This document shows, in pieces, positions 3,896 through 36,982 of a stretch of 64,000 bases of DNA; within the stretch, counting starts at the first letter, position 1, and every line of letters starts with the position of its first letter. A program made the position numbers and the translations under genes. The stretch comes from an uncultured delta proteobacterium. Its GTDB lineage: Bacteria; Desulfobacterota; Binatia; UBA9968. The notes below the pieces were generated by a model, which saw nothing but the letters and a program-made list of their open reading frames with translations, searched no databases and was not told the DNA's origin. Where the stretch lies: NCBI GenBank assembly GCA_963816145.1, contig CAWFJP010000012.1, positions 32,001 to 96,000 of the forward strand, in the 5' to 3' direction.

Positions 3896-3933
3896 AAAAA
3901 AAAGTGGCGCTTGGTACGGCCAAGCGCCACTTT
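3896..3933 (-). terminator. Intrinsic terminator of the ABC permease gene
   Basis: Perfect 14-bp stem AAAGTGGCGCTTGG/CCAAGCGCCACTTT with 5-nt loop, then a T-run on the minus strand. Confidence 0.85.
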
Positions 3934-23114: not shown

Positions 23115-24125
23115 TTACTTAAGCCCCATTACCTTTCGGTAGGTTTGAAAATACTCGTTGTAGCGCGGCGCCAAGGACATGGGCAGCGGGAGGATTTTGG
23201 TTTTTGGCGGCGCTTCTTTGAGAATCGGCGAAGCGACATCGATGCGCGGCGCGTAGTAGCCGGCGGCGGCGGTCAATTCCTGGCCTTCGCGTGACAGGAG
23301 AAAATCATTGAACAGCCGGGCGGCGTAGGGATGGGGCGCGTCCTTGACGACCGCCGTGCCGAAGGTTAAACCGATCACCGGTTCAGGCGCGATCCACTCG
23401 ATCGGCGCGCCCTCCTTTTTCAAACGGTCGACGCCGTTGGCAAAAGCCACGACCACGGCGGCACGTTCACCGGCGGCGAGCAGCGTCTGTATCGACGAAT
23501 GGCCGGTGCGGAACTGAATGTCCTGCGCGGCGAGCATTTTCAGCAGCTCCAAGGTTTTCGCCTCGCCATAGTACTGCATCATGCCCGCCATCCACTTGCT
23601 CTCGTTGTCGTCCATGAGCAACTGGCTTTTCCACTTCGCGCCAGTCAGATCCCAGAAGCTTTTCGGCGCATCGGCGGCGGCGACCATCTTTTTGTTATAG
23701 GCGATCACATTGAGCGTCGCCGATGCCATCACCCACAGTCCTTTCTCGTCGCGGTAATCTCCCGGAAACGCGGCGCGCTCGGGGGAAACATAGCTGTCGA
23801 AGAGCCCCTTCTGTAAGACGCCGTAGAAATCGAATGCCGACTGATGCACGACGTCGGCGCGGACCTTGCGTGACTGGGCCTCGGCGATCAGCCGGGTCGC
23901 CATGCGCTCTGAGCCGATGCGCGTGGCCTCGACCTTAATGTAGGGATGCCTGCGTTCGAAGGCCGCGGTGAGTCGCTGGGCCGACGGCACCTCCATCGAA
24001 GCGTAGAAGACTACCTGGCCTTCCTTCTTCGCTCCATCGATCAATCCCTGCGCCGACGCCACCGAGTTCACGATCAGCATCCAGGTGAGGCAGAACCACA
24101 ATCTTGCCAAACATCCCTGCGCCAT
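23115..24125 (-). CDS. ABC transporter substrate-binding protein (Fe/thiamine AfuA-like)
   Basis: AKKEGQVVFY, PKSFWDL..AKWK, GAPIEW, APHPYAARLF.DFLLSREGQ. Confidence 0.88.
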   Translation of the reverse strand: MAQGCLARLWFCLTWMLIVNSVASAQGLIDGAKKEGQVVFYASMEVPSAQRLTAAFERRHPYIKVEATRIGSERMATRLIAEAQSRKVRADVVHQSAFDFYGVLQKGLFDSYVSPERAAFPGDYRDEKGLWVMASATLNVIAYNKKMVAAADAPKSFWDLTGAKWKSQLLMDDNESKWMAGMMQYYGEAKTLELLKMLAAQDIQFRTGHSSIQTLLAAGERAAVVVAFANGVDRLKKEGAPIEWIAPEPVIGLTFGTAVVKDAPHPYAARLFNDFLLSREGQELTAAAGYYAPRIDVASPILKEAPPKTKILPLPMSLAPRYNEYFQTYRKVMGLK

Positions 24126-24259
24126 TGAGAACCTCCCAATCGGTCCGCGATTCGGCTGTGATGATTAACACCGAACCTCGGCCAGCGTCAACGCGCAATG
24201 CATTAATTCAAAACCACAATAGGCGTTGCTTTAGGAAACAGCCAGAAGTCGACTTTACC

Positions 24260-24290
24260 TTGACAACCCTAGGTTTTTCCAATACAAAAT
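24260..24290 (+). promoter_or_regulatory. Putative sigma70 promoter of the nuo operon
   Basis: TTGACA at 24260-24265 and TACAAAAT at 24283-24290. Confidence 0.55.
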
Positions 24291-24325
24291 TCGCTAGATC
24301 GAAAGATCATAGCGCGCCCAATAAT

Positions 24326-24362
24326 CCATACCTTTTCGATCCGGGGAGGTATGGTTTTTTTT
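24326..24362 (+). terminator. Intrinsic terminator-like hairpin in the nuoA leader (candidate attenuator)
   Basis: CCATACCTTTTCG-ATC-CGGGGAGGTATGG forms a 13-bp stem with 3 G:U pairs, followed by T8. Confidence 0.7.
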
Positions 24363-24377
24363 AATGGTTTTCACGAC

Positions 24378-24734
24378 ATGAACGATCCCTTTTTGCCATT
24401 GCTAGTGATTTTCGCGGTTGCGAGCGTGATCGTCCTCGCGCTGCTGGCGATGGCATCGTTCCTGGGTCCCAAGTCGATCAATGCGGCCAAGAGCGAGCCC
24501 TTCGAATCGGGTAATCCGCCCAAAGGTGACGCGCGCATTCGTTTCTCGGTGCGTTTCTACCTGGTCGCCATGTTGTTTCTGATCTTCGACCTGGAAGTCG
24601 TGTTTCTTTACCCGTGGGCGATTTATTTCCGCCAATTGGGCGTTTTCGGCCTGGTCCAGATGGGCATTTTCCTGGCGATTCTGACGATCGGCTACGCTTA
24701 CGTTTGGAAAAAAGGCGCCCTTGAATGGGATTGA
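24378..24734 (+). CDS. nuoA: NADH-quinone oxidoreductase subunit A
   Basis: KSEPFESG, RFYLVAMLFLIFDLE, WKKGALEWD. Confidence 0.96.
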   Translation: MNDPFLPLLVIFAVASVIVLALLAMASFLGPKSINAAKSEPFESGNPPKGDARIRFSVRFYLVAMLFLIFDLEVVFLYPWAIYFRQLGVFGLVQMGIFLAILTIGYAYVWKKGALEWD

Positions 24735-24740
24735 GTGTAC

Positions 24741-25304
24741 ATGGTTGAAGCGAGCCCCCAACTCCAACATATCCAGGATAAGCTTGGCGCCAGAGTGTTG
24801 AATGTCAGTGAACCCCAAGGGGATGATGTCATCGCTCTGGATCGCGCCGGTTTGCGCGAAAGTTTTCGCTTGCTCAAGCAAGACGGCGAACTCAGTTTTA
24901 ATTTCCTTTCCGACATTACCGCAGTCGATTATTGGCAAAAGCAGGAGCCGCGTTTTGAGGTCGTCTATCAACTGGTCTCTCTCAAACACCGCCGGCGCTT
25001 GCGTGTGCGCGTGGGGGTGCCGGAAGCTGATGCGGTGGTCGACTCACTGACGCCGCTCTGGCGCGGCGCCAACTTTCTCGAGCGGGAAGTCTGGGATCTT
25101 TACGGCATCCGTTTCAGCGATCATCCGGACTTGCGGCGTATCTTGCTCTATGACGAATTCACTGGCCACCCGCTGCGCAAGGACTATCCGGTCAATCTGT
25201 GCCAGCCGCGGGTGCCGGAACGGCATGTCGACGGCACGTTCGTCGACGAGCGGTCGCATAACAAACTGCTGCGTTTACAGAAAAGTTTGGCAAAGAAGAA
25301 CTAG
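24741..25304 (+). CDS. nuoC: NADH-quinone oxidoreductase subunit C
   Basis: DITAVDY, EREVWDLYGIRF..HPDLRRIL, GHPLRKDYP. Confidence 0.96.
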   Translation: MVEASPQLQHIQDKLGARVLNVSEPQGDDVIALDRAGLRESFRLLKQDGELSFNFLSDITAVDYWQKQEPRFEVVYQLVSLKHRRRLRVRVGVPEADAVVDSLTPLWRGANFLEREVWDLYGIRFSDHPDLRRILLYDEFTGHPLRKDYPVNLCQPRVPERHVDGTFVDERSHNKLLRLQKSLAKKN

Positions 25305-25325
25305 CCGCCGCGCCCGAACAACTCG

Positions 25326-26516
25326 ATGAAAGCCGATAATCCAGAGCTGCCGCATGAAATCATGGAGTTGCAGATGGGACCGTCCCATCCGGCGACTCAT
25401 GGCACCATCAAGTTCAATCTCAAGCTCGAAGGCGAAAAGGTGCTCGACTGCGACGTCGAGTTGGGCTTTCTCCATCGCGGATTCGATAAAAGCTGCGAAC
25501 AGTCGACCTGGACCCAAGTCATTCCCTACACCGACCGGCTTAATTATGCTTCCTCGTTGATCAATAACGTCGGCTACGCGCTCGCCGTGGAGAAACTGAT
25601 CGGCGCGCCTACGCCGCCGCGCTGCCAGTATATCCGGGTGATCGTCAGCGAGCTGGCGCGCATCTTTGATCATCTAACCTGCTGCGGCATGGCTGCTTCG
25701 GAGCTGGGCGCGATCACGGTGGGATTTTACATGATCGAAGCGCGCGAGCTGATAACCCGGATCGTCGAGAATCTCACGGGCGCGCGCCTGACCGTAACCT
25801 ACGTGCGCATCGGCGGCGTCAAGCATGACTTGCCGCAGGATTTCGCCGAGCGCGTGACCTCGACTTTCACGACCATTCGTAAATTGCTCGACGATTGCGA
25901 TAGCTTGTTGTCGCGCAACCGGATTTTCCTCGACCGCATGTCCAACATTGGCGTGATTTCCCAGGAGTCGGCGCTCGATCACAGCCTCACCGGGCCGATC
26001 CTGCGCGCCACCGGAGTCAACTACGACGTGCGCAAGGCATTCCCCTATTTGGTTTACGATCAGATGGAGTTTGAAGTGCCGGTGGGCAGTCACGGTGATA
26101 ACTATGACCGCTTCCTGTGCCGGCTTGGTGAGATCCAGCAGAGTATGAAGATCGTCGAACAGGCGCTGCGCCAGTTGCCGATCGGTCCGGTATGGATCGA
26201 TGATCCAAGATTTGTCTTGCCGGAAAAGGAAAAAGTTTACGGCAGCATCGAAGGCTTGATGCACCATTTCAAGATCATCATGGAAGGCATTCATGTGCCG
26301 GCGGGCGAGACTTACAGCGCGGTGGAAGGCGGCAACGGCGAATTGGGTTTTTACGTTGTCAGCGATGGCGGCGGCAAACCTTACCGTTTGCGCGTGCGCC
26401 CGCCCTGTTTCATCGCCATGGGCGCGTTTGCCGAGATGATCAAAGGCTACATGGTCGCGGATATCGTGCCGACCTTCGGCATGATTAACATGATCGGCGG
26501 GGAGTGCGATCGCTGA
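25326..26516 (+). CDS. nuoD: NADH-quinone oxidoreductase subunit D
   Basis: MGPSHPATHG, GFLHRG, YTDRLNY, GELG, C-terminal GECDR. Confidence 0.97.
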   Translation: MKADNPELPHEIMELQMGPSHPATHGTIKFNLKLEGEKVLDCDVELGFLHRGFDKSCEQSTWTQVIPYTDRLNYASSLINNVGYALAVEKLIGAPTPPRCQYIRVIVSELARIFDHLTCCGMAASELGAITVGFYMIEARELITRIVENLTGARLTVTYVRIGGVKHDLPQDFAERVTSTFTTIRKLLDDCDSLLSRNRIFLDRMSNIGVISQESALDHSLTGPILRATGVNYDVRKAFPYLVYDQMEFEVPVGSHGDNYDRFLCRLGEIQQSMKIVEQALRQLPIGPVWIDDPRFVLPEKEKVYGSIEGLMHHFKIIMEGIHVPAGETYSAVEGGNGELGFYVVSDGGGKPYRLRVRPPCFIAMGAFAEMIKGYMVADIVPTFGMINMIGGECDR

Positions 26517-26601
26517 GAGTAATTGAGAACGGAAAATGGAGAATGGAAAATTAGGGATAACCTAATGTCGGGGGCGATCATCTAGCCTCGATTCGATAAT
26601 C

Positions 26602-27075
26602 ATGGCTCTAGAGTTTTCACCAGAGACGCTGAAGGAGTTCGAGGCGGCGGTGGCGCGCTATCCGAAGAAGGAAGCGGCGATGCTGCCGGTGCTTTATTTG
26701 GCTCAGCGTGAGTTCGGCCATCTCGGGCCGGAGGCGATCGAGTATGTTGCCAAGCTGATGGACCAGGCGCCGTCGCGCGTGCAGGGCGTGGTGAGTTTTT
26801 ACACCATGTACAACATGAAGCCGATCGGGCGCCACCATATTCAAGTTTGCCGCACTTTACCCTGCGCTTTGCGCGGCGCCGAAGAGGTGACGGAGTTTCT
26901 CAAGAAAAAGCTCGGCATCGATTGCGGCCAAACAACGCCGGACGGCCGGTTCACCCTTTCCGAAGTGGAATGTTTGGCCTCCTGCGGCACGGCGCCGATG
27001 ATGCAGGTCAACGACGAGTATTATGAAAATCTGACGGAGGAGAAGATCAACGCGCTCCTCGACGTATTGAAGTAA
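26602..27075 (+). CDS. nuoE: NADH-quinone oxidoreductase subunit E
   Basis: VCRTLPC and ECLASCGTAP 2Fe-2S ligands. Confidence 0.96.
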   Translation: MALEFSPETLKEFEAAVARYPKKEAAMLPVLYLAQREFGHLGPEAIEYVAKLMDQAPSRVQGVVSFYTMYNMKPIGRHHIQVCRTLPCALRGAEEVTEFLKKKLGIDCGQTTPDGRFTLSEVECLASCGTAPMMQVNDEYYENLTEEKINALLDVLK

Positions 27076-27085
27076 TAAACAGTCC

Positions 27086-27163
27086 GTCATGCCCGCGAAA
27101 GCGGGCATCCAGGCGAGACGTTGCATAAAACGAAACCTGGATTCCCGCTTTCGCGGGAATGAC
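27086..27163. repeat. GTCAT...ATGAC double-hairpin REP-like element
   Basis: GTCATGCCCGCGAAAGCGGGCATCCA ... TGGATTCCCGCTTTCGCGGGAATGAC between nuoE and nuoF. Confidence 0.85.
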
Positions 27164-27201
27164 GATAAGGCGAAAATCGACTTAGTTGACGGATTTTTAG
27201 A

Positions 27202-28470
27202 GTGGAAAAGGTTTTACTCCGCAATATCGGTATTCCGGATTCGCATACGCTGGCGACCTACAAGTCGCGCGGCGGTTACGATTCCTGGCGAAAAGTTGTC
27301 CAGAGCATGAAGCCGGAGCAGCTGATCGAAGAAGTCAAGGCTTCAGGCCTGCGCGGCCGCGGCGGCGCAGGCTTCCCGACTGGGATGAAGTGGAGCTTTG
27401 TGCCCAAGGACAATCCCAAGCCTAAATATGTGGTCTGCAATGCTGATGAGAGCGAGCCGGGAACCTTTAAAGACCGTTTGCTGATCGAGCAGGACCCGCA
27501 CGCAGTCGTCGAAGGATCTCTAATCTCGGCCTTCGCGATCGGGTCGCACATGGCGTTTATTTACATTCGCGGTGAGATGGTATTTGGCGCCAAGCGCTTG
27601 GAACAGGCGGTTACCGAAGTATACCAAGCCGGCTTAATCGGCAAGAATATTTTCGGCTCGGGCTATAATCTCGATTTGATCGTCCATCGTGGCGCCGGAG
27701 CGTATATTTGCGGCGAGGAGACCGGCTTGCTGTCGTCCCTCGAAGGCGGCCGTGGATGGCCCAAGGTCAAGCCGCCGTTTCCGGCCACCCACGGGCTATT
27801 CGGTTGTCCGACAGTGGTAAACAATGTAGAGACGCTGGCGACGCTGCCGTGGATCATCGAACGGGGCGCAGCGGCCTACGCGGCGATGGGCACCGAAAAA
27901 AGCAAAGGGACCAAGCTCTTCAGCGTCAGCGGCCACATTAGCCGGCCCGGCGTGTACGAACTCGAAATGGGTTATCCCCTCAAAAAATTTCTCGAGGAAG
28001 ATTGCGGCGGCGTGCCTAACGGGAAAAAACTCAAAGGAGTCATTCCCGGCGGCGGTTCGATGCCCGTGCTGCTTCCCGACGAAATTGACAAAGTGAACCT
28101 CGACTACGAATCCGTCCAGGCGGCGGGCAGCCTGCTCGGTTCGGGGGGCGTCATCGTCATGGACGAAACGACCTGCATGGTGAGGGCCGCGTTGAACCTT
28201 TCGCGATTTTTCGCGCACGAGTCCTGCGGCCAATGCAGCCCATGCCGCGAAGGCTGCCACTGGATGGAGAAGCTTCTGCACCGGATCGAATACGGCCAGG
28301 GCGAACCAGGTGACTTAGACTTGATTCTCAACGTCGCCGGAAACATTGCGGGCAACACGATCTGCCCCTTTGGTGATGCCGCCGCCTGGCCGCCGGGCGC
28401 ATTCATCCGCAAGTTTCGCGGCGAATTCGAAGCGCATATCGCGGCGGGGAAATGCACGGTGCGAAATTAG
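27202..28470 (+). CDS. nuoF: NADH-quinone oxidoreductase subunit F
   Basis: SGLRGRGGAGFPTGMKW, NADESEPGTFKD, GAGAYICGEET, ESCGQCSPCREG. Confidence 0.97.
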   Translation: MEKVLLRNIGIPDSHTLATYKSRGGYDSWRKVVQSMKPEQLIEEVKASGLRGRGGAGFPTGMKWSFVPKDNPKPKYVVCNADESEPGTFKDRLLIEQDPHAVVEGSLISAFAIGSHMAFIYIRGEMVFGAKRLEQAVTEVYQAGLIGKNIFGSGYNLDLIVHRGAGAYICGEETGLLSSLEGGRGWPKVKPPFPATHGLFGCPTVVNNVETLATLPWIIERGAAAYAAMGTEKSKGTKLFSVSGHISRPGVYELEMGYPLKKFLEEDCGGVPNGKKLKGVIPGGGSMPVLLPDEIDKVNLDYESVQAAGSLLGSGGVIVMDETTCMVRAALNLSRFFAHESCGQCSPCREGCHWMEKLLHRIEYGQGEPGDLDLILNVAGNIAGNTICPFGDAAAWPPGAFIRKFRGEFEAHIAAGKCTVRN

Positions 28471-28550
28471 TTTACAGCGGTCAGTTATCAGGTCGCAATC
28501 CGGACATTGACCTGATAGCTGATCACTGATGGCTCGCACAAATTAAAATT

Positions 28551-30140
28551 ATGGACCCAGTAAAGATCGTCATCAACGGTCAGGAAGTCGTCACCTCCAA
28601 GGGCAAGACCGTGATCCAAGCGGCTGCCGAGGCCGGTGTGGCGATCCCGCACTATTGCTATCATCCGAAGCTGTCGATCGCCGGTAACTGCCGCATGTGC
28701 ATGGTCGAGATCGAAAAGATGCCCAAGCTGCAGATCGCCTGTAACACCCAGGTGGCCGAGGGCATGTCGGTGTTGACCCAGAGTCCCAAAGTTGTCGCGG
28801 TGCGCAAGGCAGTCTTAGAGTTTCTCCTGATCAACCACCCGGTGGATTGCCCAATCTGCGACCAGGCCGGCGAGTGTCAGTTGCAAAACTACTACATGGA
28901 ACATGACAGGGAGGCGAGCCGTCTCGAGGTCGGCAAGATCCACGACCGCAAGAAAACCATCTTCGGTCCTAACGTGGTTTTCGACGGCGAGCGCTGTATC
29001 AAGTGCACCCGCTGCGTGCGTTTTTGCCAGGAGATCACCAAGACCAACGAACTGGCGGTGATCAACCGCGGCGATCACTCGACGATTTCGCTATTCGACG
29101 ACGCCGTGCTCGACAATCCACTATCCGCCAACGTCGTCGACATTTGCCCGGTAGGCGCGCTCACCGACCGGGATTTTCGCTTTAAAGTGCGGGTCTGGTA
29201 TTTAGACAAAACCCCGTCCATCTGTCCCGGCTGCAGCACCGGCTGCAACATCAGCGTCGAAGCGTATCAAAACAAGATCGCGCGCTTCAAACCCCGGCAA
29301 AATGAAGCGGTCAACAGTCACTGGATCTGCGACGAAGGGCGTTACTGTTTTCATGAATTGGCCGGCGGCGAACGGCTGACCACACCGATGATCCGCCAAG
29401 AAGGCGGCCTAGTGCCGGCGACTTGGGAAACGGCATTGCAGGCTGTGGTCAACGGATTACGCGGCGCGCAGCCGCTGGCGGGGATTCTCTCCGGACGTAA
29501 TACCAATGAAGAGGCCTATTTGTTCGCCAAGCTGCTGCGCAAGCTCACCAGTTATTGTTCGATGGAAGTTTTCTATCAGGAACGGCCGCTCACCGATGTG
29601 CAAAAGATTCTAATGAACCCGGACCGTTCGCCGAATTTCCGCGGCGCCCGCGACATGGGGGTAAGCTCCAGCGGCGGCTTCGCGGGATTGCTGCAGGAGT
29701 TAGCCGGTAATCATTTTTCCAGCGCTTTCATTGTCGGCGAGGATTTACTCGGAGCTAACGGCAGCGGCGAGAAGATTCGCAGCGCCTTGCAGAAGCTCAG
29801 TTTCCTGGTCGTGCAAGATACCATGTTGAGCGAGACTGCCAAGTTGGCTCATGTGGTCTTGCCGGCGGCACACTTTGGCGAGAAAGAGGGCACCTACACC
29901 AATCGCCAGGGCCGTGTGCAAAGGCTCAATGCCGCGGTGATCTGTCCCGACGGCGCGCGCCAGGACAGCGAGATTTTCTTGCGCCTGTTAGAAGGCGCGG
30001 GGCAACAGCTCGATTATTCCACGGCTGCCGAGATATTTACCGCGTTGACCAAAGAAGTGATCGCCTATAACGGACTCAATTACGACTCGATCGGCGATCA
30101 AGGATGCGAGTTGGGAAGTGGCGGTGGCGCAGCGTCATGA
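28551..30140 (+). CDS. nuoG: NADH-quinone oxidoreductase subunit G (short, 529 aa)
   Basis: HYCYHP..SIAGNCRMC, HPVDCPICDQAGEC, CIKCTRC, CPVGAL, CPGCSTGC...WICDEGR. Confidence 0.93.
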   Translation: MDPVKIVINGQEVVTSKGKTVIQAAAEAGVAIPHYCYHPKLSIAGNCRMCMVEIEKMPKLQIACNTQVAEGMSVLTQSPKVVAVRKAVLEFLLINHPVDCPICDQAGECQLQNYYMEHDREASRLEVGKIHDRKKTIFGPNVVFDGERCIKCTRCVRFCQEITKTNELAVINRGDHSTISLFDDAVLDNPLSANVVDICPVGALTDRDFRFKVRVWYLDKTPSICPGCSTGCNISVEAYQNKIARFKPRQNEAVNSHWICDEGRYCFHELAGGERLTTPMIRQEGGLVPATWETALQAVVNGLRGAQPLAGILSGRNTNEEAYLFAKLLRKLTSYCSMEVFYQERPLTDVQKILMNPDRSPNFRGARDMGVSSSGGFAGLLQELAGNHFSSAFIVGEDLLGANGSGEKIRSALQKLSFLVVQDTMLSETAKLAHVVLPAAHFGEKEGTYTNRQGRVQRLNAAVICPDGARQDSEIFLRLLEGAGQQLDYSTAAEIFTALTKEVIAYNGLNYDSIGDQGCELGSGGGAAS

Positions 30141-31267
30141 TCGTCGACCTCGCGATTATCACCCTTAAAGCGGTGCTTGTCGTCGCTATGGTGCTCAACC
30201 TCGCCGGCATTCTGGGCTGGGTTGAGCGCAAAGGCAGCGCGCTCATCCAAGACCGCATCGGCGCCAACCGGGCATCGATCTTGGGCTTCGCCGGTCTGGG
30301 TCTGATCAATACTATGATCGCCGATCCGCTCAAGTTTCTGACCAAAGAAGATTTCATTCCGCCCAAGGGCGACCGCTTCCTGCACACCTTGGCCCCTTGC
30401 ATGGCACTGTTTCCGGCGCTGGTGACCTTCGCCGTCATTCCTTTCGGCGATGTGCTTAACCTCGGCGAGCGCTCGATCAATTTACAGGTCGCCAATCTCA
30501 ACATCGGCATCCTCTACGTGTTCGCCATGGGTTCTTTGGGCGTTTACGGCATCGTCATTGGCGCCTGGGCGTCGAACAATAAGTTTTCCATGCTCGGCGG
30601 CGTGCGCGGCTCGGCGCAGATGATCTCCTATGAGGTCGCCATGGGGCTGTCGGTGATCGGCATCTTGATGGTTTATGGCACGTTGGAGCTGCAAGATATC
30701 GCCCGTGGCCAAGCCACCTTGCTGCGCGACCTCATGCCCACGTGGCTCAGTTTTTTGACTCCGCTCATCGGTTGGTTGCCGGCGTGGGGGATTTTTCTCC
30801 AACCGCTGGCGTTCCTATTATTTTTCACCGCCGCGGTGGCGGAGACCAAACGCATACCGTTCGATTTGCCCGAAGGCGAGTCGGAGCTGGTGGCCGGTTA
30901 TCATACCGAATATTCCGGCGGCAAGTTCTTGATGTTCTTTGCCGGTGAGTTTGCCGAGGTCGTCACCGTTGCCGGTTTGGTGACGAGTTTATTTTTTGGC
31001 GGCTGGCAGGTGCCCTATCTTTTGCGTGACGGTTTCCATTTCCCTTGGGGCGGTATCCTGCTGTTGCCGCATGTCTTAATCGTCCTGCTGCAAGTGACGG
31101 CATTCACGGTCAAGGTGGTGTTTTTCTGCTGGCTGCAGATCCTCTTGCGCTGGAGTGTGCCGCGCTTTCGTTACGACCAGGTCATGCGCTTGGGTTGGAA
31201 AATGCTCTTACCGCTGGCGCTGCTAAACGTCGTCGCCACGGCGATTTGGATCGTCGCAGCGCAATAG
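30137..31267 (+). CDS. nuoH: NADH-quinone oxidoreductase subunit H
   Basis: ERK...QDRIG, AQMISYE, PFDLPEGESELVAGYHTEYS, PRFRYDQ. ATGA overlap with nuoG. Confidence 0.96.
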   Translation: MIVDLAIITLKAVLVVAMVLNLAGILGWVERKGSALIQDRIGANRASILGFAGLGLINTMIADPLKFLTKEDFIPPKGDRFLHTLAPCMALFPALVTFAVIPFGDVLNLGERSINLQVANLNIGILYVFAMGSLGVYGIVIGAWASNNKFSMLGGVRGSAQMISYEVAMGLSVIGILMVYGTLELQDIARGQATLLRDLMPTWLSFLTPLIGWLPAWGIFLQPLAFLLFFTAAVAETKRIPFDLPEGESELVAGYHTEYSGGKFLMFFAGEFAEVVTVAGLVTSLFFGGWQVPYLLRDGFHFPWGGILLLPHVLIVLLQVTAFTVKVVFFCWLQILLRWSVPRFRYDQVMRLGWKMLLPLALLNVVATAIWIVAAQ

Positions 31268-31278
31268 ACTTTGAGTTT

Positions 31279-31773
31279 ATGGATACCGCGAGTCTACTTT
31301 TTTACCTGCTGGCCACCTTGCTGGTGATCGCGTCGCTGATGGTGGTGTTTCTACGCAACGTCGTGCACTGCGCCATGGCGCTGGTTTCGGCGCTGCTCTT
31401 GATCGCGGTGTTGTTCGTTACCTTGCATGCGCCCATGGTCGGGGTGCTGCAGGTGATGGTCTACGCCGGCGCCATCATGGTTTTGTTTCTTTTCGTCATC
31501 ATGTTGCTCAACCCGGCGGCATTGGAGCAGCAGCCCGGTCTCTGGTGGGGCTTCGGCACGCTCCTGGCCTTGATGCTTGCCGGTGTCTTGGTTCCGTTGG
31601 TGGCGACCAACGATCTTCCCGCCGACCCGGTGGCGGCGACGGAATTATTCGGCAGTCCCGAAATGCTCGCCAAAAGCTTATTTAACGATTACGTGCTGCC
31701 CTTCGAAATCGCATCTGTCTTATTATTGGTTGCGATCATCGGCGCGGTGGTTTTGGCCAAGCGAGAAAATTAA
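31279..31773 (+). CDS. nuoJ: NADH-quinone oxidoreductase subunit J
   Basis: [20 protein letters not shown] and [16 protein letters not shown]. Confidence 0.95.
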
Positions 31774-31778
31774 CTGCC

Positions 31779-32081
31779 ATGATTGGGCTGCACCATTATC
31801 TGATTCTAAGCGCGGTGATCTTCGCCATCGGCGTCATCGGCGTGTTGATCCGGCGCAATCTGATCGTCATCCTCATGTCCATAGAATTGATGCTCAACGC
31901 GGTCAACCTGACTTTTATCGCGTTTTCGCGCTATCTCGGCTCGACCGACGGCCAGGTGGTGGTGTTCTTCGTCATGGCGGTGGCCGCGGCGGAGGCTGTC
32001 ATCGGGCTGGCCATCATCATTTCGGTCTATCGCCATCGCCAATCCTTGGATCCCCAGGAGATGCAGCTGCTCAAATGGTAG
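31779..32081 (+). CDS. nuoK: NADH-quinone oxidoreductase subunit K
   Basis: [11 protein letters not shown] and [10 protein letters not shown]. Confidence 0.96.
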
Positions 32082-33997
32082 AGACGACCCAAAATCTGGT
32101 GAATACCGATCTTTTGCGCTGGATTCCCTTGATTCCGCTGCTCGGCAGTGTGGTCAATCTGTTCTTTGGCCGGGCATTGGGTAAACAAGGCGCCGGGTTG
32201 TTGGCCTGCGCGGCGGTCGGGACATCGTTCGCATTGGTTGTTTTTGTCTTCTCGCAGTTGCCATCGACTGGGATCTTTCGCGATTTGCTTTACACCTGGA
32301 TTCACTCAGGGTCTTTTCAGGCCAATCTTTCCTTTCAAGTCGATGCGTTAACCACGGTGATGCTCTTGGTGGTCACCGGCATCGGCTTTTTGATCCATAT
32401 TTATTCCTTGGGCTACATGGGCGATGACGACGACATGGTGCGCTTTTTTATTTATCTCAACCTGTTCATCTTTTTCATGCTGCTCTTGGTCATGGGTGAC
32501 AATCTGCTGTTGCTCTTTGTCGGTTGGGAAGGTGTCGGCCTTTGTTCCTATCTCTTGATCGGTTTCTGGTACCACGATCACAACAACACCATCGCCGGCA
32601 ATAAGGCGTTTATCGTCAACCGCATCGGCGATCTGGGATTCATCATCGGGATTTTCGTGTTGGTGGCTGAGTTAGGCCGCCAAGGCATCTGGACGCTCGA
32701 TTTCGTCGAGCTGCAGAAGCATGTGAAAATGTTGCAGCCGGGCACCATTACGTTAATCACCTTTCTGCTTTTCATCGGCGCCACGGGAAAATCGGCACAG
32801 ATACCGCTGTTTGTCTGGCTGCCCGACGCTATGGCCGGACCGACGCCGGTGAGCGCGCTGATCCACGCCGCCACCATGGTGACCGCCGGCGTCTACATGA
32901 CGGCACGGCTGCATTTTCTCTTCGCCTTGGCGCCGGCGACCTTGGCACTTATCGCTGTGATCGGCACGGCGACGGCATTTTTCGCCGCGACCATTGCGCT
33001 GACGCAGAACGATATCAAGAAAGTCTTGGCCTACTCGACGGTGAGCCAACTGGGGTACATGTTTCTCGCCGTCGGCATGGGTGGCTTCGGTGCGGCGATC
33101 TTTCACGTCTTCACCCATGCGTTCTTCAAAGCTTGCTTGTTCCTGGGTTCCGGTAGCGTTATCCACGCTCTCGGCGGCGAGCAGGATATGCGCAAGATGG
33201 GCGGGCTCAAAGCTTACATGCCGAAAACTTACTGGACCTACGTCGTTGCAACTTTGGCGATCGCCGGCGTGCCCTTCACCGCCGGTTTCTTCTCCAAGGA
33301 TTTGATTCTCTGGCAGACCTTCAGCCATGGCGCGACCCTGTTATGGGCCGTTGGCCTTGTCACCGCCGGAATGACCGCCTTTTACATGTTTCGCCAGCTA
33401 TTCATGGTCTTTCATGGCGAGTGCCGCGCCGACGCCCATGCCAAGGCGCATATTCATGAATCGCCGGCAATCATGACCTTGCCGCTGATTATCCTGGCCG
33501 TCGGTTCGGTCTTCACCGGTTGGCTGGGCGCGCCGGAATATCTCTGGGGCAGCCGCTGGGATCATTGGCTGGAGCCGATCTTCGGTGCCCAGGCCCATCA
33601 TGGTGCGGTAAGTAGCGAGCTGTTGGTGACCTTTGTCACTTTGGCCGTGGTCGCCGTGGGAATTTATTTGGCATACCTCATGTTCGGCAAAGCCGGAGCG
33701 TTGGCCGGACAAAGAATTGGCAGCGGCGTTCTCTACGAGCTCTCGCTCAACAAGTATTACGTCGATGATATTTACGATTTTATTTTCGTCCGGCCGTTCA
33801 CGGCGGCGGCCAAGTTCTTTGCCGGCATCGTTGATCCTTGGGTGATCGATGGCGCGGTCAATGGCGTCGCCGCCACGGCGCGCGGTTTCAGCACGATCTG
33901 GCGCGGCCTGCAGACCGGTAACGTACAGCACTATGCAGCGATGTTTTTAGTCGGTGTCCTGGCCCTGCTCGCGTACTATCTCGGACAACTGTCATGA
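32075..33997 (+). CDS. nuoL: NADH-quinone oxidoreductase subunit L
   Basis: [56 protein letters not shown] 32075 overlaps the end of nuoK. Confidence 0.96.
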
Positions 33998-35547
33998 TGT
34001 CAGCGCAAGGCTTCGGAGATTTGACTCTGCTACTCGCCATCCCGGTGCTCGGCGCGGCGGCGCTTTTGTTTCTGCCGCGGCGCCAGTCGGCCGGGCTGTT
34101 CGCCGTTGCACTGATCGCCAGCGCGATAGCCTTCCTCTGGTCGCTCAAGATTTTCGAACGCTTCGACGGCGGCAACGGCGAGATGCAGCTGATCGAGCGG
34201 GTGGCGTGGATGCCGGCCATCGGCATTCAATATCTTGTCGGTATCGACGGCATCAGCATTTTTCTGGTTTTGCTTACCACCTTTCTCATGCCGCTGGCGC
34301 TGTTGGCCTCCTGGTCGGTGCGTGACAAGGTCAAAGAGTATTTGATCTTCATGCTACTCTTGGAAACCGGCATGCTCGGCGCCTTCCTGGCGCTCGATCT
34401 GGTGCTGTTCTATGTGTTTTGGGAAGTCATGCTGGTGCCGATGTATTTTTTGATCGGCGTGTGGGGCGGTACGCGGCGCATCTACGCGGCGGTGAAATTC
34501 GTTCTCTTCACCATGGCCGGCAGCTTGCTCATGTTGGTGGCGATCATTTATCTCGCCACGCGCCATGCTCAGGTGACGCAAGTGCTGACATTTAACGTGT
34601 TACACCTCTACGATCTGCACTTGCCGGTGGAGCAACAATTCTGGTTATTCCTCGCCTTCGCTTTGTCGTTCGCCATCAAGGTGCCGCTGTTTCCATTCCA
34701 CACCTGGCTGCCTGACGCCCATGTGGAAGCGCCAACCGCCGGATCGGTAATCCTCGCCGGCGTGCTGTTGAAGCTAGGTACCTACGGCTTTCTGCGTTTC
34801 GCCATGCCGCTGTTTCCCGACGCCGCCATCGCCTTGATGCCTTACCTCGTTGCCCTATCGGTTATCGGCATCGTCTACGGCGCGTTGGTGGCGATGATGC
34901 AGACCGATATCAAAAAGCTGGTCGCCTATTCTTCCGTCAGCCATCTAGGGTTCGTCATGCTTGGGCTCTGCGCGCTCAATATGCAGGGAGTGCAGGGCAG
35001 CATCTATCAAATGCTCAATCATGGCCTTTCTACCGGCGCACTGTTTCTCATGGTCGGCATGATCTATGACCGGCGCCACACCCGACTGATCGCCGAATTC
35101 GGCGGATTGTGGAAGCAGATGCCGGTGTTTTCGGTCTTGTTGCTGGTGGTGACGTTGTCCTCCATCGGGCTGCCGGGGCTCAACGGCTTCGTCGGTGAAT
35201 TTCTAATTCTACTCGGCTCCTTTAGCGTGACGCCGCGCTGGACCGCGGTGGCGGCGACCGGCGTGATTCTCGGCGCGATCTACATGCTCTGGATGTTTCG
35301 CCGGGTGATCTTCGGGCCGCTCAACAACCCGGAGAATCAAAAGCTGCAAGATCTGAACGGCCGGGAATTGTTAATCTTAGCGCCGATGATTTTCTTGATC
35401 GTTTACATGGGCGTCCATCCCCAGCCGTTCTTGAGCCGCATGCAACCGGCGGTGGCATTAAATTTGAAGCGAATCTTTACTTTGCCAGTATCACCCATGG
35501 CCGCCCAACCTGATGTCAGCGGGGAGCAGCAGAACGATGGACGTTAA
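33994..35547 (+). CDS. nuoM: NADH-quinone oxidoreductase subunit M
   Basis: FWEVMLVPMY, KVPLFPFHTWLPDAHVEAPT, AYSSVSHLG. Confidence 0.96.
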   Translation: MMSAQGFGDLTLLLAIPVLGAAALLFLPRRQSAGLFAVALIASAIAFLWSLKIFERFDGGNGEMQLIERVAWMPAIGIQYLVGIDGISIFLVLLTTFLMPLALLASWSVRDKVKEYLIFMLLLETGMLGAFLALDLVLFYVFWEVMLVPMYFLIGVWGGTRRIYAAVKFVLFTMAGSLLMLVAIIYLATRHAQVTQVLTFNVLHLYDLHLPVEQQFWLFLAFALSFAIKVPLFPFHTWLPDAHVEAPTAGSVILAGVLLKLGTYGFLRFAMPLFPDAAIALMPYLVALSVIGIVYGALVAMMQTDIKKLVAYSSVSHLGFVMLGLCALNMQGVQGSIYQMLNHGLSTGALFLMVGMIYDRRHTRLIAEFGGLWKQMPVFSVLLLVVTLSSIGLPGLNGFVGEFLILLGSFSVTPRWTAVAATGVILGAIYMLWMFRRVIFGPLNNPENQKLQDLNGRELLILAPMIFLIVYMGVHPQPFLSRMQPAVALNLKRIFTLPVSPMAAQPDVSGEQQNDGR

Positions 35548-36982
35548 CCTCGTACCCCTGCTGCCGGCGGTGCAAGTGCTGGTTACTGCACTGGTGGTCA
35601 CCGTGCGTGACCTGTTTATCAAGGCCAACGAATCGCGCGGCGTCCTAGCTTTCTATAGTCTTGTTGGTCTCGGCTTGGCCGCCGCCGAGGTGGTGTTGTT
35701 GCTCGGCGGCAAGCAAGAGAGCGCATTCAACGACAGCTTCATGCTCGATCGCTTCGCGTTGTTTTTCGCGGTGATTTTTATCTTTGCAGCGGCGCTGACG
35801 ATTCTCACATCGATCGACTATGTGCGGCAGGCCGGCATCCACGAGGGTGAATTCTACGCGCTCATTCTGTTCGCGACCTCGGGCATGATTGTCATGGCGG
35901 CGGCCAACGATTTGATGGTTTTCTTCCTCGGCCTGGAAACCATGTCGATCGCGGTCTACGTGCTCACCGGCATGTGGCGTTCCAACGGCCGATCTAGCGA
36001 AGCGGCGATGAAATACTTTTTAATGGGCGCCTATGCCACCGGCTTCTTGCTCTATGGGATCGCGTTGATCTACGGCGCCACCGGCTCGACCAATCTAACC
36101 CAAATATCCGCTTATATGCTTGACCAACCCGCTGAATGGCCGATTTATCTGATCGGCGGCGGTTTTTTGCTGTTGATCGGTTTCGCTTTCAAAGTCGGCG
36201 CAGTGCCGTTTCATTTCTGGGTGCCCGATGTTTACGACGGCGCGCCGACGCCGGTGACCGGTTTCATGTCGGTGGCGGTCAAGGCCGCCGCCTTCGCCGC
36301 CTGGGCGCGCATCCTGCTATACCGGCTCTCGCCGTTGGACGGCGATTGGGTATTTCCACTGTGGATCATCGCTATCGGCACGATGACGTTAGGCAATCTG
36401 TTGGCGATCACCCAACAGAGTATCAAGCGTATGCTGGCGTACTCGAGCATCGCCCATGCGGGATATCTACTGATACCCATCGTCGTCGGCGTGGAATGGG
36501 GCGGTTTGCCGCTGCTGTTCTATCTACTCACCTATTCTTTCATGACCCTGGGCGCTTTCGCCGTGCTTGCCAGCATGGCGGAGGGCAACGAGCCTCGCGA
36601 TGGATACAGTGACTTTGCCGGATTGGGTTTCAAGCGGCCGTTCTTGGCGCTCGCCATGTCGCTCTTTATGCTATCACTGGCCGGATTCCCACCGCTGGCT
36701 GGTTTCACCGGCAAGTTCTACGTCTTTCGTTCGGCAGTTTTATCCGGCCAATTAAACCTCGCCATAATCGGTGTGCTCAACAGCCTGCTGTCGGTGATCT
36801 TCTACTTGCGGGTTATCGTCGCGATGTATATGGAAGAGGGCGGCGCCCAAGGAAAATCGTTTCGCCAAGCGCCGTTCGTTTATATCGCCGTCGCCATCGC
36901 TCTGATCGGCACGATCTATTTGGGTATTCTGCCCGCCGACGCACTCAACTGGAGCCGCCAGGCTTTTGGCTCGTTGGAATAA
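35537..36982 (+). CDS. nuoN: NADH-quinone oxidoreductase subunit N
   Basis: EAAMKYF, FKVGAVPFHFWVPDVY, KRMLAYSSIAHAGY, SLAGFPP..GF.GK. Confidence 0.96.
   Translation: MDVNLVPLLPAVQVLVTALVVTVRDLFIKANESRGVLAFYSLVGLGLAAAEVVLLLGGKQESAFNDSFMLDRFALFFAVIFIFAAALTILTSIDYVRQAGIHEGEFYALILFATSGMIVMAAANDLMVFFLGLETMSIAVYVLTGMWRSNGRSSEAAMKYFLMGAYATGFLLYGIALIYGATGSTNLTQISAYMLDQPAEWPIYLIGGGFLLLIGFAFKVGAVPFHFWVPDVYDGAPTPVTGFMSVAVKAAAFAAWARILLYRLSPLDGDWVFPLWIIAIGTMTLGNLLAITQQSIKRMLAYSSIAHAGYLLIPIVVGVEWGGLPLLFYLLTYSFMTLGAFAVLASMAEGNEPRDGYSDFAGLGFKRPFLALAMSLFMLSLAGFPPLAGFTGKFYVFRSAVLSGQLNLAIIGVLNSLLSVIFYLRVIVAMYMEEGGAQGKSFRQAPFVYIAVAIALIGTIYLGILPADALNWSRQAFGSLE

Follow-up and report, generated by a model that had tools for sequence, protein, structure and literature searches.

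A conserved terminator-like hairpin between the promoter and nuoA in complex I operons of uncultured Candidatus Binatia

Leader terminators, attenuators and premature 3' ends within 5' UTRs are already known as a kind of element; what sets the present one apart is its location, in front of nuoA in uncultured Binatia. In the systems governed by BglG/LicT-RAT, TRAP, PyrR and HutP, antitermination or termination at a leader terminator depends on a protein. The Binatia nuoA leader resembles them in having a terminator without RNA-only sensing, at which a factor acting near the 5' arm would decide the outcome, but no known binding motif was recognised in it. Classical attenuators, whose hairpins exclude each other, include the leader-peptide attenuators of the trp type; riboregulators of this kind are described in PMC5314783. 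They are similar in that a leader terminator gates a whole operon, and a comparable three-element layout can be drawn for the genome studied here. They differ in that the Binatia nuoA leaders have no conserved antiterminator, and an ATG-started leader ORF reaching the terminator is present in 8 of 64 leaders, that of the genome studied here not being among them. Premature intrinsic termination in E. coli 5' UTRs was revealed by 3'-end mapping (PMC7815308). Units of this type have a promoter and a short leader with a hairpin and U-tract ahead of the first gene, as the Binatia locus does, and a short by-product RNA, as predicted for it; the difference is that their 3' ends were mapped, whereas the Binatia nuoA terminator is drawn from comparative evidence only and has no known regulator.

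The nuoA leader of E. coli K-12 itself (L188, NC_000913.3, 3074-3210, minus strand) folds at -35.9 kcal/mol (z -2.30), in two domains: an A-run and U8 close the early hairpin, while the second one ends in UUUU some 16 nt ahead of the ATG. A consensus terminator scan found 0 terminator-like sites in this leader. It is like the Binatia leader in being structured and in placing a hairpin and a U-run shortly before nuoA, but the two are unrelated in sequence and the E. coli hairpin is followed only by UUUU. The resemblance is taken as an analogy and not as support for the Binatia terminator.

No respiratory enzyme is larger or more costly than complex I. In the passages of the literature covered here, control of nuo genes in bacteria, E. 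coli included, is described as promoter regulation by DNA-binding proteins. The string "nuo" does not occur in the searched text of PMC7815308, the passages retrieved for "nuo operon" with riboswitch concern antisense RNAs instead, and no literature was found on Binatia with NADH dehydrogenase. No described nuoA attenuator was found in the literature covered, in line with an earlier note on this DNA that knew of no element of this kind for nuoA.

The window, meaning the whole stretch of 64,000 nucleotides analyzed, is G000:C12:32001-96000 of an uncultured Binatia genome (G000) assembled to 7.82 Mb in 31 contigs; the DNA runs containing it are labelled as soil and wetland metagenomes. The features considered below are as follows.

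23115-24125, minus strand: divergent gene for an extracellular solute-binding protein; its Shine-Dalgarno sequence is GGGAGG
24260-24265, plus strand: -35 hexamer TTGACA of the nuo promoter, read from the sequence and conserved in relatives
24283-24288, plus strand: -10-like hexamer TACAAA, 17 nt after TTGACA
24292-24314, plus strand: hairpin 1, CGCTA-GATC-GAAA-GATC-a-TAGCG, from the sequence and the fold
24326-24354, plus strand: putative terminator hairpin of 13 bp (3 G-U) with the loop AUC, from the fold, the terminator scan and covariation
24355-24362, plus strand: U-tract T8, where RNA 3' ends are expected, read from the sequence and found by the terminator scan
24378-24734, plus strand: nuoA, 118 aa, without a Shine-Dalgarno sequence, Pfam PF00507
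24735-36982, plus strand: nuoC, D, E, F, G, H, J, K, L, M and N, identified by Pfam

The nuo operon of the window (24378-36982) comprises 12 genes and lacks nuoB and nuoI. The 12 respiratory genes that the earlier note placed behind the leader were identified by Pfam as nuoA, nuoC-H and nuoJ-N. The nuoA start at 24378, also proposed there, is supported by 26 relatives that align from residue 1. No Shine-Dalgarno sequence precedes any of the 11 nuo gene starts examined, and the ten besides nuoA lack a U-tract as well. NuoB-family matches are found on other contigs only, namely C20, C31 (two), C18 and C30. The match on C30 (G000:C30:434103-434434; L186, L187) is in two pieces with one TGA inside, which may reflect a frameshift, gene decay or recoding of the stop. 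A conventional nuoA-B-C operon is located on contig C31, and its nuoA, the other one in this genome, has no leader of the kind described here.

The nearest gene upstream is divergent, as first noted: the solute-binding protein gene, on the minus strand, has GGGAGG 7 nt before its ATG and a promoter-like site of its own, TTGACG-17-TTAATC (window 24150-24200, minus strand). Because it is divergent, no upstream gene can use a terminator placed before nuoA.

The TTGACA placed ahead of nuoA at 24260 is present and belongs to a conserved promoter. The combination of TTGAC[A/T], a fixed 17-nt spacer and a TAnAAA-type hexamer was read from the aligned rows in 82 of 82 leaders from published genomes, a count made up of 78 seen in the aligned rows and 4 in rows that had anchored on a second TTGAC and were re-anchored. 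In the whole G000 genome the pattern CTTGAC[AT]-17-TA.AA[AT] has 6 sites, and 2 of the 5 others sit just 5' of tRNA-Leu and tRNA-Met genes. On account of these tRNA genes, TTGACA-17-TACAAA looks like the housekeeping promoter type of the lineage. A promoter scan by the E. coli rule left the nuo promoter uncalled, since that rule needs a final T, which TACAAA does not have. From the position of the hexamers, transcription would start near 24295-24297, so that the outer stem of hairpin 1 (CGCTA/TAGCG) probably lies partly 5' of the start. A second promoter, or a leaderless nuoA, between the T8 and the ATG was considered and rejected: just 15 nt are available (24363-24377), none of this sequence is conserved and the scan was empty.

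The 13-bp hairpin at 24326-24354 followed by T8, which had been recognised as having the form of an intrinsic terminator, was found at exactly these coordinates. Its distance to the nuoA ATG is 16 nt, and the promoter lies about 60 nt upstream of it. When the segment 24285-24385 was folded, both this hairpin and hairpin 1 appeared in the MFE and the centroid structures, at -28.0 kcal/mol (z -2.71), and 2 of 200 shuffles folded as stably; the core terminator hairpin by itself has about -17 kcal/mol. A terminator scan of a 701-nt stretch picked out the 13-pair stem and the T8, although with so loose a pattern 0.7 chance matches are expected in 701 nt, and the scan is weak evidence by itself. The rarity of such sites in the genome is more informative. 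Stems with 6 or more pairs and a T-run of T7 or longer directly behind them occur at 86 sites on both strands of the whole 7.82-Mb genome, which corresponds to about 6.5e-4 expected per 118-nt leader, and the stem in the nuoA leader is among the longest. In 33 of the hairpin-plus-T7 sites the stem has 9 pairs or more, and 21 of these 33 are located at most 200 nt past the end of an ORF, by a row count that uses ORFs of at least 120 aa from crude ORF calling. Therefore, G000 puts hairpin-plus-T signals at gene ends. An ordinary strong gene-end terminator, GTGGCGCTTGG...CCAAGCGCCAC followed by T8, is also present in the window itself, at about 3896-3930 on the minus strand.

Two other assignments of the region were examined. 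The Rfam scan proposed in the earlier note was run on positions 24000-24600 of the window, where only chance snoRNA-type matches with E above 1 were obtained, and on the leaders of 20 relatives, where the single match had E 0.79 and was on the wrong strand; no known family was thus matched. A repeat or mobile element was rejected as well, the 201-nt region being unique in the genome. Its best other match, a 15-nt complement that falls within a long ORF, has E 4.8 and is no better than chance.

Orthologues of nuoA (cut-off at least 65% identity) were searched for in 123 genomes of the order. The window's family has one in 81 of its 89 genomes, a sister family in 5 of 5 and a third family in 1 of 28 (at 50% identity). 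Overall, 88 of the 123 genomes have the orthologue; leaving out the unpublished genomes G005, G076, G079 and G093, the figure becomes 84 of 119. No claim made here depends on these four; one of them, G005, supplies a row of the first alignment, which has 21. The DNA upstream of nuoA, collected from 82 published genomes, yielded 80 distinct nuoA leaders, representing two uncultured Candidatus Binatia families. The 80-row MAFFT alignment of these leaders is unselected; a set of 58 rows was chosen for having the hairpin, so that its paired percentage is inflated by the selection. A terminator was called strong with a core of -9 kcal/mol or lower and 6 or more T among the 8 nt that follow the stem.

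By this definition, the terminator is strong in 58, weak in 8 and absent in 14 of the 80 leaders, and strong terminators are present in 22 of 26 genera. At least 6 T within 8 nt after the stem are likewise found in 58 of 80 leaders, and the T-run columns are at least 90% T (alignment A4). In the unselected 80-row alignment, 89.5-93.2% of cells are paired at the seven pairs of the lower stem and 73.9% in the upper stem, against 38-49% when the stem partners are slid by 1-3 columns. Covariation, which the earlier note suggested testing in nuoA leaders of relatives, is seen for this stem: 40 cells carry two-sided changes vs 11.6 +/- 3.0 in shuffles of the 58 hairpin rows, and 0 of 500 shuffles reach 40. 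Stems of quite unlike sequence are retained, such as CCGTACC/GGTACGG, CGCACCG/CGGTGCG, CCCAGCC/GGTTGGG and CCCCCTC/GAGGGGG. RNAalifold applied to the genus alignment predicted the terminator as the sole structure.

The same alignments indicate the strand. Cells with G-U outnumber those with A-C by 91 to 12 in the 58 rows and by 124 to 34 in all 80 rows, while the distance from heptamer to heptamer ranges from 5 to 15 nt among the leaders. The G-U excess and the variable spacing argue that the selected object is a hairpin in the sense RNA, and not an operator in DNA.

The exact pair CCATACC...GGTATGG is present in 38 of 80 leaders, and the 5' arm CCAUACC(U)CUC is widely retained. For comparison, two ordinary gene-end terminators of G000 were searched by BLAST and were alignable in 24 of 74 and 6 of 49 matched genomes, which at first pointed to ordinary terminators being alignable just inside the genus. 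For the first control gene, 12 of 20 genomes from other genera have a similar terminator, GAGGRAAGG...CCTTYCCTC followed by a T-run. Since an ordinary terminator is likewise kept, an extra sequence constraint on the nuoA stem was rejected; judged by these alignments, the retention of CCATACC...GGTATGG does not clearly go beyond that of ordinary G000 terminators. The 14 leaders that lost the terminator keep the promoter unchanged, so the hairpin appears dispensable in some lineages and would be an element that tunes expression rather than an essential one.

A covariance model of the hairpin with its T-run (R1) was used to survey the genomes. Most of the matching sequences built the model and match by construction, so the informative result is the absence of extra copies. 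In G000 the model has a single match (E 3e-8). Across the order there are 55 matches in 54 of 123 genomes, 3 of these 54 being unpublished; by family, matches occur in 51 of the 89 genomes of the window's own, in 2 of the sister family's 5 and in none of the 28 of the third, which is without the orthologue. Comparison of coordinates places 53 of the 55 matches directly 5' of the nuoA orthologue. Of the other two, the match on contig C42 of G031 is a generic gene-end terminator, and that on contig C4 of G105 lies 5' of a shortened second copy of nuoA, with nuoC and nuoD behind it. This second nuoA-like gene (G105:C4:52300-54200, L180, 270-560) codes for about 63-71 aa, with the N-terminal part missing. 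Its leader shares the terminator and has a hairpin 1 of 8 bp but lacks the conserved promoter, and a gene of the same direction ends immediately upstream. Either a genuine duplication or bin contamination may account for this copy. In the sister family f2 (L031-L035), an extra conserved hairpin and the motif CGTGTCATGAAT occupy the 30-37 nt between the U-tract and the ATG, both of which are missing in the window's family.

The element is best described as a promoter-proximal intrinsic terminator in the nuoA leader, that is, an attenuator without a built-in antiterminator, a reading to which we give somewhat better than an even chance of being correct. The attenuation originally proposed for this leader thus holds as far as a conserved terminator-like hairpin between promoter and nuoA is concerned, while the switch with competing structures, discussed below, is not conserved. 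From the known properties of a hairpin joined to a U-tract and from the placement of such signals in G000, we infer termination in vivo; read-through may in addition be regulated. Polymerase would start at the conserved housekeeping-type promoter, transcribe about 30 nt of poorly conserved leader and then meet the 13-bp hairpin and U8, where most transcripts would end by default at about 24358-24363, releasing a leader RNA of about 65 nt. Because the hairpin is located between the promoter and nuoA, transcription of all 12 nuo genes must cross it. Only polymerases that read through would reach nuoA, 16 nt further on, and the 11 other complex I genes, and the fraction of read-through would determine how strongly the operon is expressed.

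The absence of a conserved competing structure, aptamer or leader peptide suggests that this fraction is probably set outside the leader's own folding. It could depend on elongation kinetics or the NTP level, on Nus factors, or on a dedicated small RNA or RNA-binding factor; it could also just be fixed. Since no sensor or partner was identified, the word "regulated" is unsupported, and constitutive damping accounts for the data equally well.

A different function for the same hairpin, without a working terminator, would be that of a stabilising 5' UTR structure whose U-rich tract serves as a ribosome standby or S1 site for nuoA. The lack of a Shine-Dalgarno sequence at nuoA and the position of the U-tract, 16-23 nt before the ATG, are consistent with this, and so is a contig from an RNA library that crosses the hairpin into nuoA. 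The RNA evidence consists of assembled metatranscriptome contigs, taken from small shares, in which contig ends do not show RNA starts or ends and stretches without coverage are uninformative. The contig in question (X19 record 19, 151 nt, 3 mismatches) covers 24315-24465 and so runs across the hairpin and T8 into nuoA, 48 of its letters preceding and 103 following position 24362; it represents read-through molecules, which suit the terminator reading too, or carried-over DNA. Another contig (X15 record 1, 4 mismatches), which counts against the terminator reading, covers 24079-24343, with the start of the divergent gene, the nuo promoter and half the terminator. It could stem from carried-over DNA, antisense transcription, a start further upstream or a divergent gene with a long 5' UTR. 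A function in initiation is, however, at odds with the other 10 nuo starts, which have neither a Shine-Dalgarno sequence nor a U-tract, indicating that the U-tract is unneeded for it. Moreover, in the 80 leaders the U-run is never kept where the hairpin is lost, though several hairpins have weakened T-runs. A strong hairpin (about -17 kcal/mol) abutting U8 is obeyed by bacterial polymerases as an intrinsic termination signal, and G000 puts such signals at gene ends. We consider a standby site without termination unlikely.

Within the terminator reading, a more specific proposal is that a dedicated trans-acting antiterminator or small RNA reads the CCAUACC(U)CUC arm and thereby couples complex I synthesis to the redox or energy state of the cell. 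This proposal is speculative and, in our estimate, quite unlikely.

It is also conceivable that the terminated leader, of about 65 nt and made up of a 5' hairpin, a linker and the terminator with its U-tail, is itself a trans-acting small RNA, for instance of the Hfq type, and that nuo is expressed by leak-through. Small-RNA genes are built in this way, with a strong promoter and then a strong terminator ending in U8, and the unit is conserved. Against this, the leaders have no conserved single-stranded seed, the 5' segment and the linker differing among genera; the unit is never found away from nuoA, bar the one generic terminator match; and the sole 15-nt complement in the genome, inside a long ORF, is at chance level. 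Such a role therefore seems rather improbable.

The earlier note had gone further and read the G000 leader as a self-contained RNA switch, in which hairpin 1 is the anti-antiterminator, the pairing of GATCGAAA with TTTCGATC the antiterminator and the second hairpin the terminator, with a ligand or another signal flipping between them. The parts can indeed be drawn in G000. Hairpin 1 is present as described, with an inner GATC/GATC stem and GAAA loop at 24297-24308 (-4.1 kcal/mol, z -1.36), and GATCGAAA (24297-24304) is perfectly complementary to TTTCGATC (24334-24341), the alternative duplex having -9.7 kcal/mol and z -3.08 relative to a shuffled upstream segment. Among ten leaders with the same type of hairpin 1, the alternative pairing is complete (8/8) in G000, G019, G002, G004, G003 and G022, the five relatives keeping it with wobble-compatible changes; it is reduced in the other four, to 5/8 pairs in G021, 6/8 in G023, 4/8 in G009 and 3/8 in G084.

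Neither part is conserved more widely. Hairpin 1 is paired in 49% of cells of the 80-row alignment, and its GAAA loop is found in 2 of the 10 leaders with the same hairpin type. The alternative pairing is formed in 42.6% of cells of the 80 leaders, vs 40.3 +/- 1.5% in shuffles, 36 of 500 of which reach it, and vs 41.6% when it is slid by one column. The upstream segment was also compared with the 5' arm and loop of the terminator in 63 leaders, scoring duplex energy against 200 dinucleotide shuffles. The complementarity had a mean z of -0.26 and the folding gain a mean z of +0.01; G000, at -3.08, is an outlier among close relatives at -1.32 to +0.73. Even in G000 the folding gain of the upstream segment with the 5' arm is just -2.2 kcal/mol (z -0.34), because hairpin 1 competes. 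The complementarity in this genome stems from three copies of the palindrome GATC. The 5' segment, variable and about 30 nt long, showed no conserved fold or aptamer when the family leaders were compared, its MFE averaging -3.6 kcal/mol with a mean z of -0.18. Judged from the sequences, hairpin 1 and the alternative pairing are specific to G000 and its nearest relatives, and the three-part switch, with its pairing at shuffle level, its first hairpin unconserved and Rfam empty for window positions 24000-24600 and 20 relatives, is very unlikely.

The related alternatives were rejected on similar grounds: a riboswitch, in view of the absence of a conserved aptamer or antiterminator in 80 leaders and of any Rfam match, and a leader-peptide attenuator of the trp type, in view of the rarity of ORFs that reach the terminator and their absence in G000. 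The ATG at 24351, in the 3' arm, is in frame with nuoA in G000; in relatives the frame differs, and the triplet becomes ACG wherever the stem covaries to CCGTACC/GGTACGG. The 5' segments of many genera carry a semi-conserved motif, CCUG(A/G)(U/C)G(A/G), about 2-11 nt past the inferred start. Its distance from the -10 hexamer and its pairing partners vary, and the G000 subgroup has AGAUCGAAAGAUC at this place. A switch-like three-hairpin appearance in one genome can thus be an accident, and here only the terminator is under selection.

The last alternative, in which the inverted repeat CCATACC...GGTATGG is bound by a dimeric repressor downstream of the transcription start, would fit the exact heptamer pair of 38 leaders and yet is extremely unlikely, given the variable heptamer spacing, the exchange of stems for unrelated complementary sequences, the G-U excess over A-C and the T-run that always comes next on the sense strand.

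The nuoA leader offers a concrete 100-nt element open to in vitro or reporter work without culturing the organism. If a trans-acting factor does act on it and the hairpin before E. coli nuoA works in the same way, premature termination would be a recurrent and overlooked layer of complex I control. For the Binatia themselves, the retention of the terminator across two soil and wetland families implies that the expression of complex I is also set after transcription initiation.
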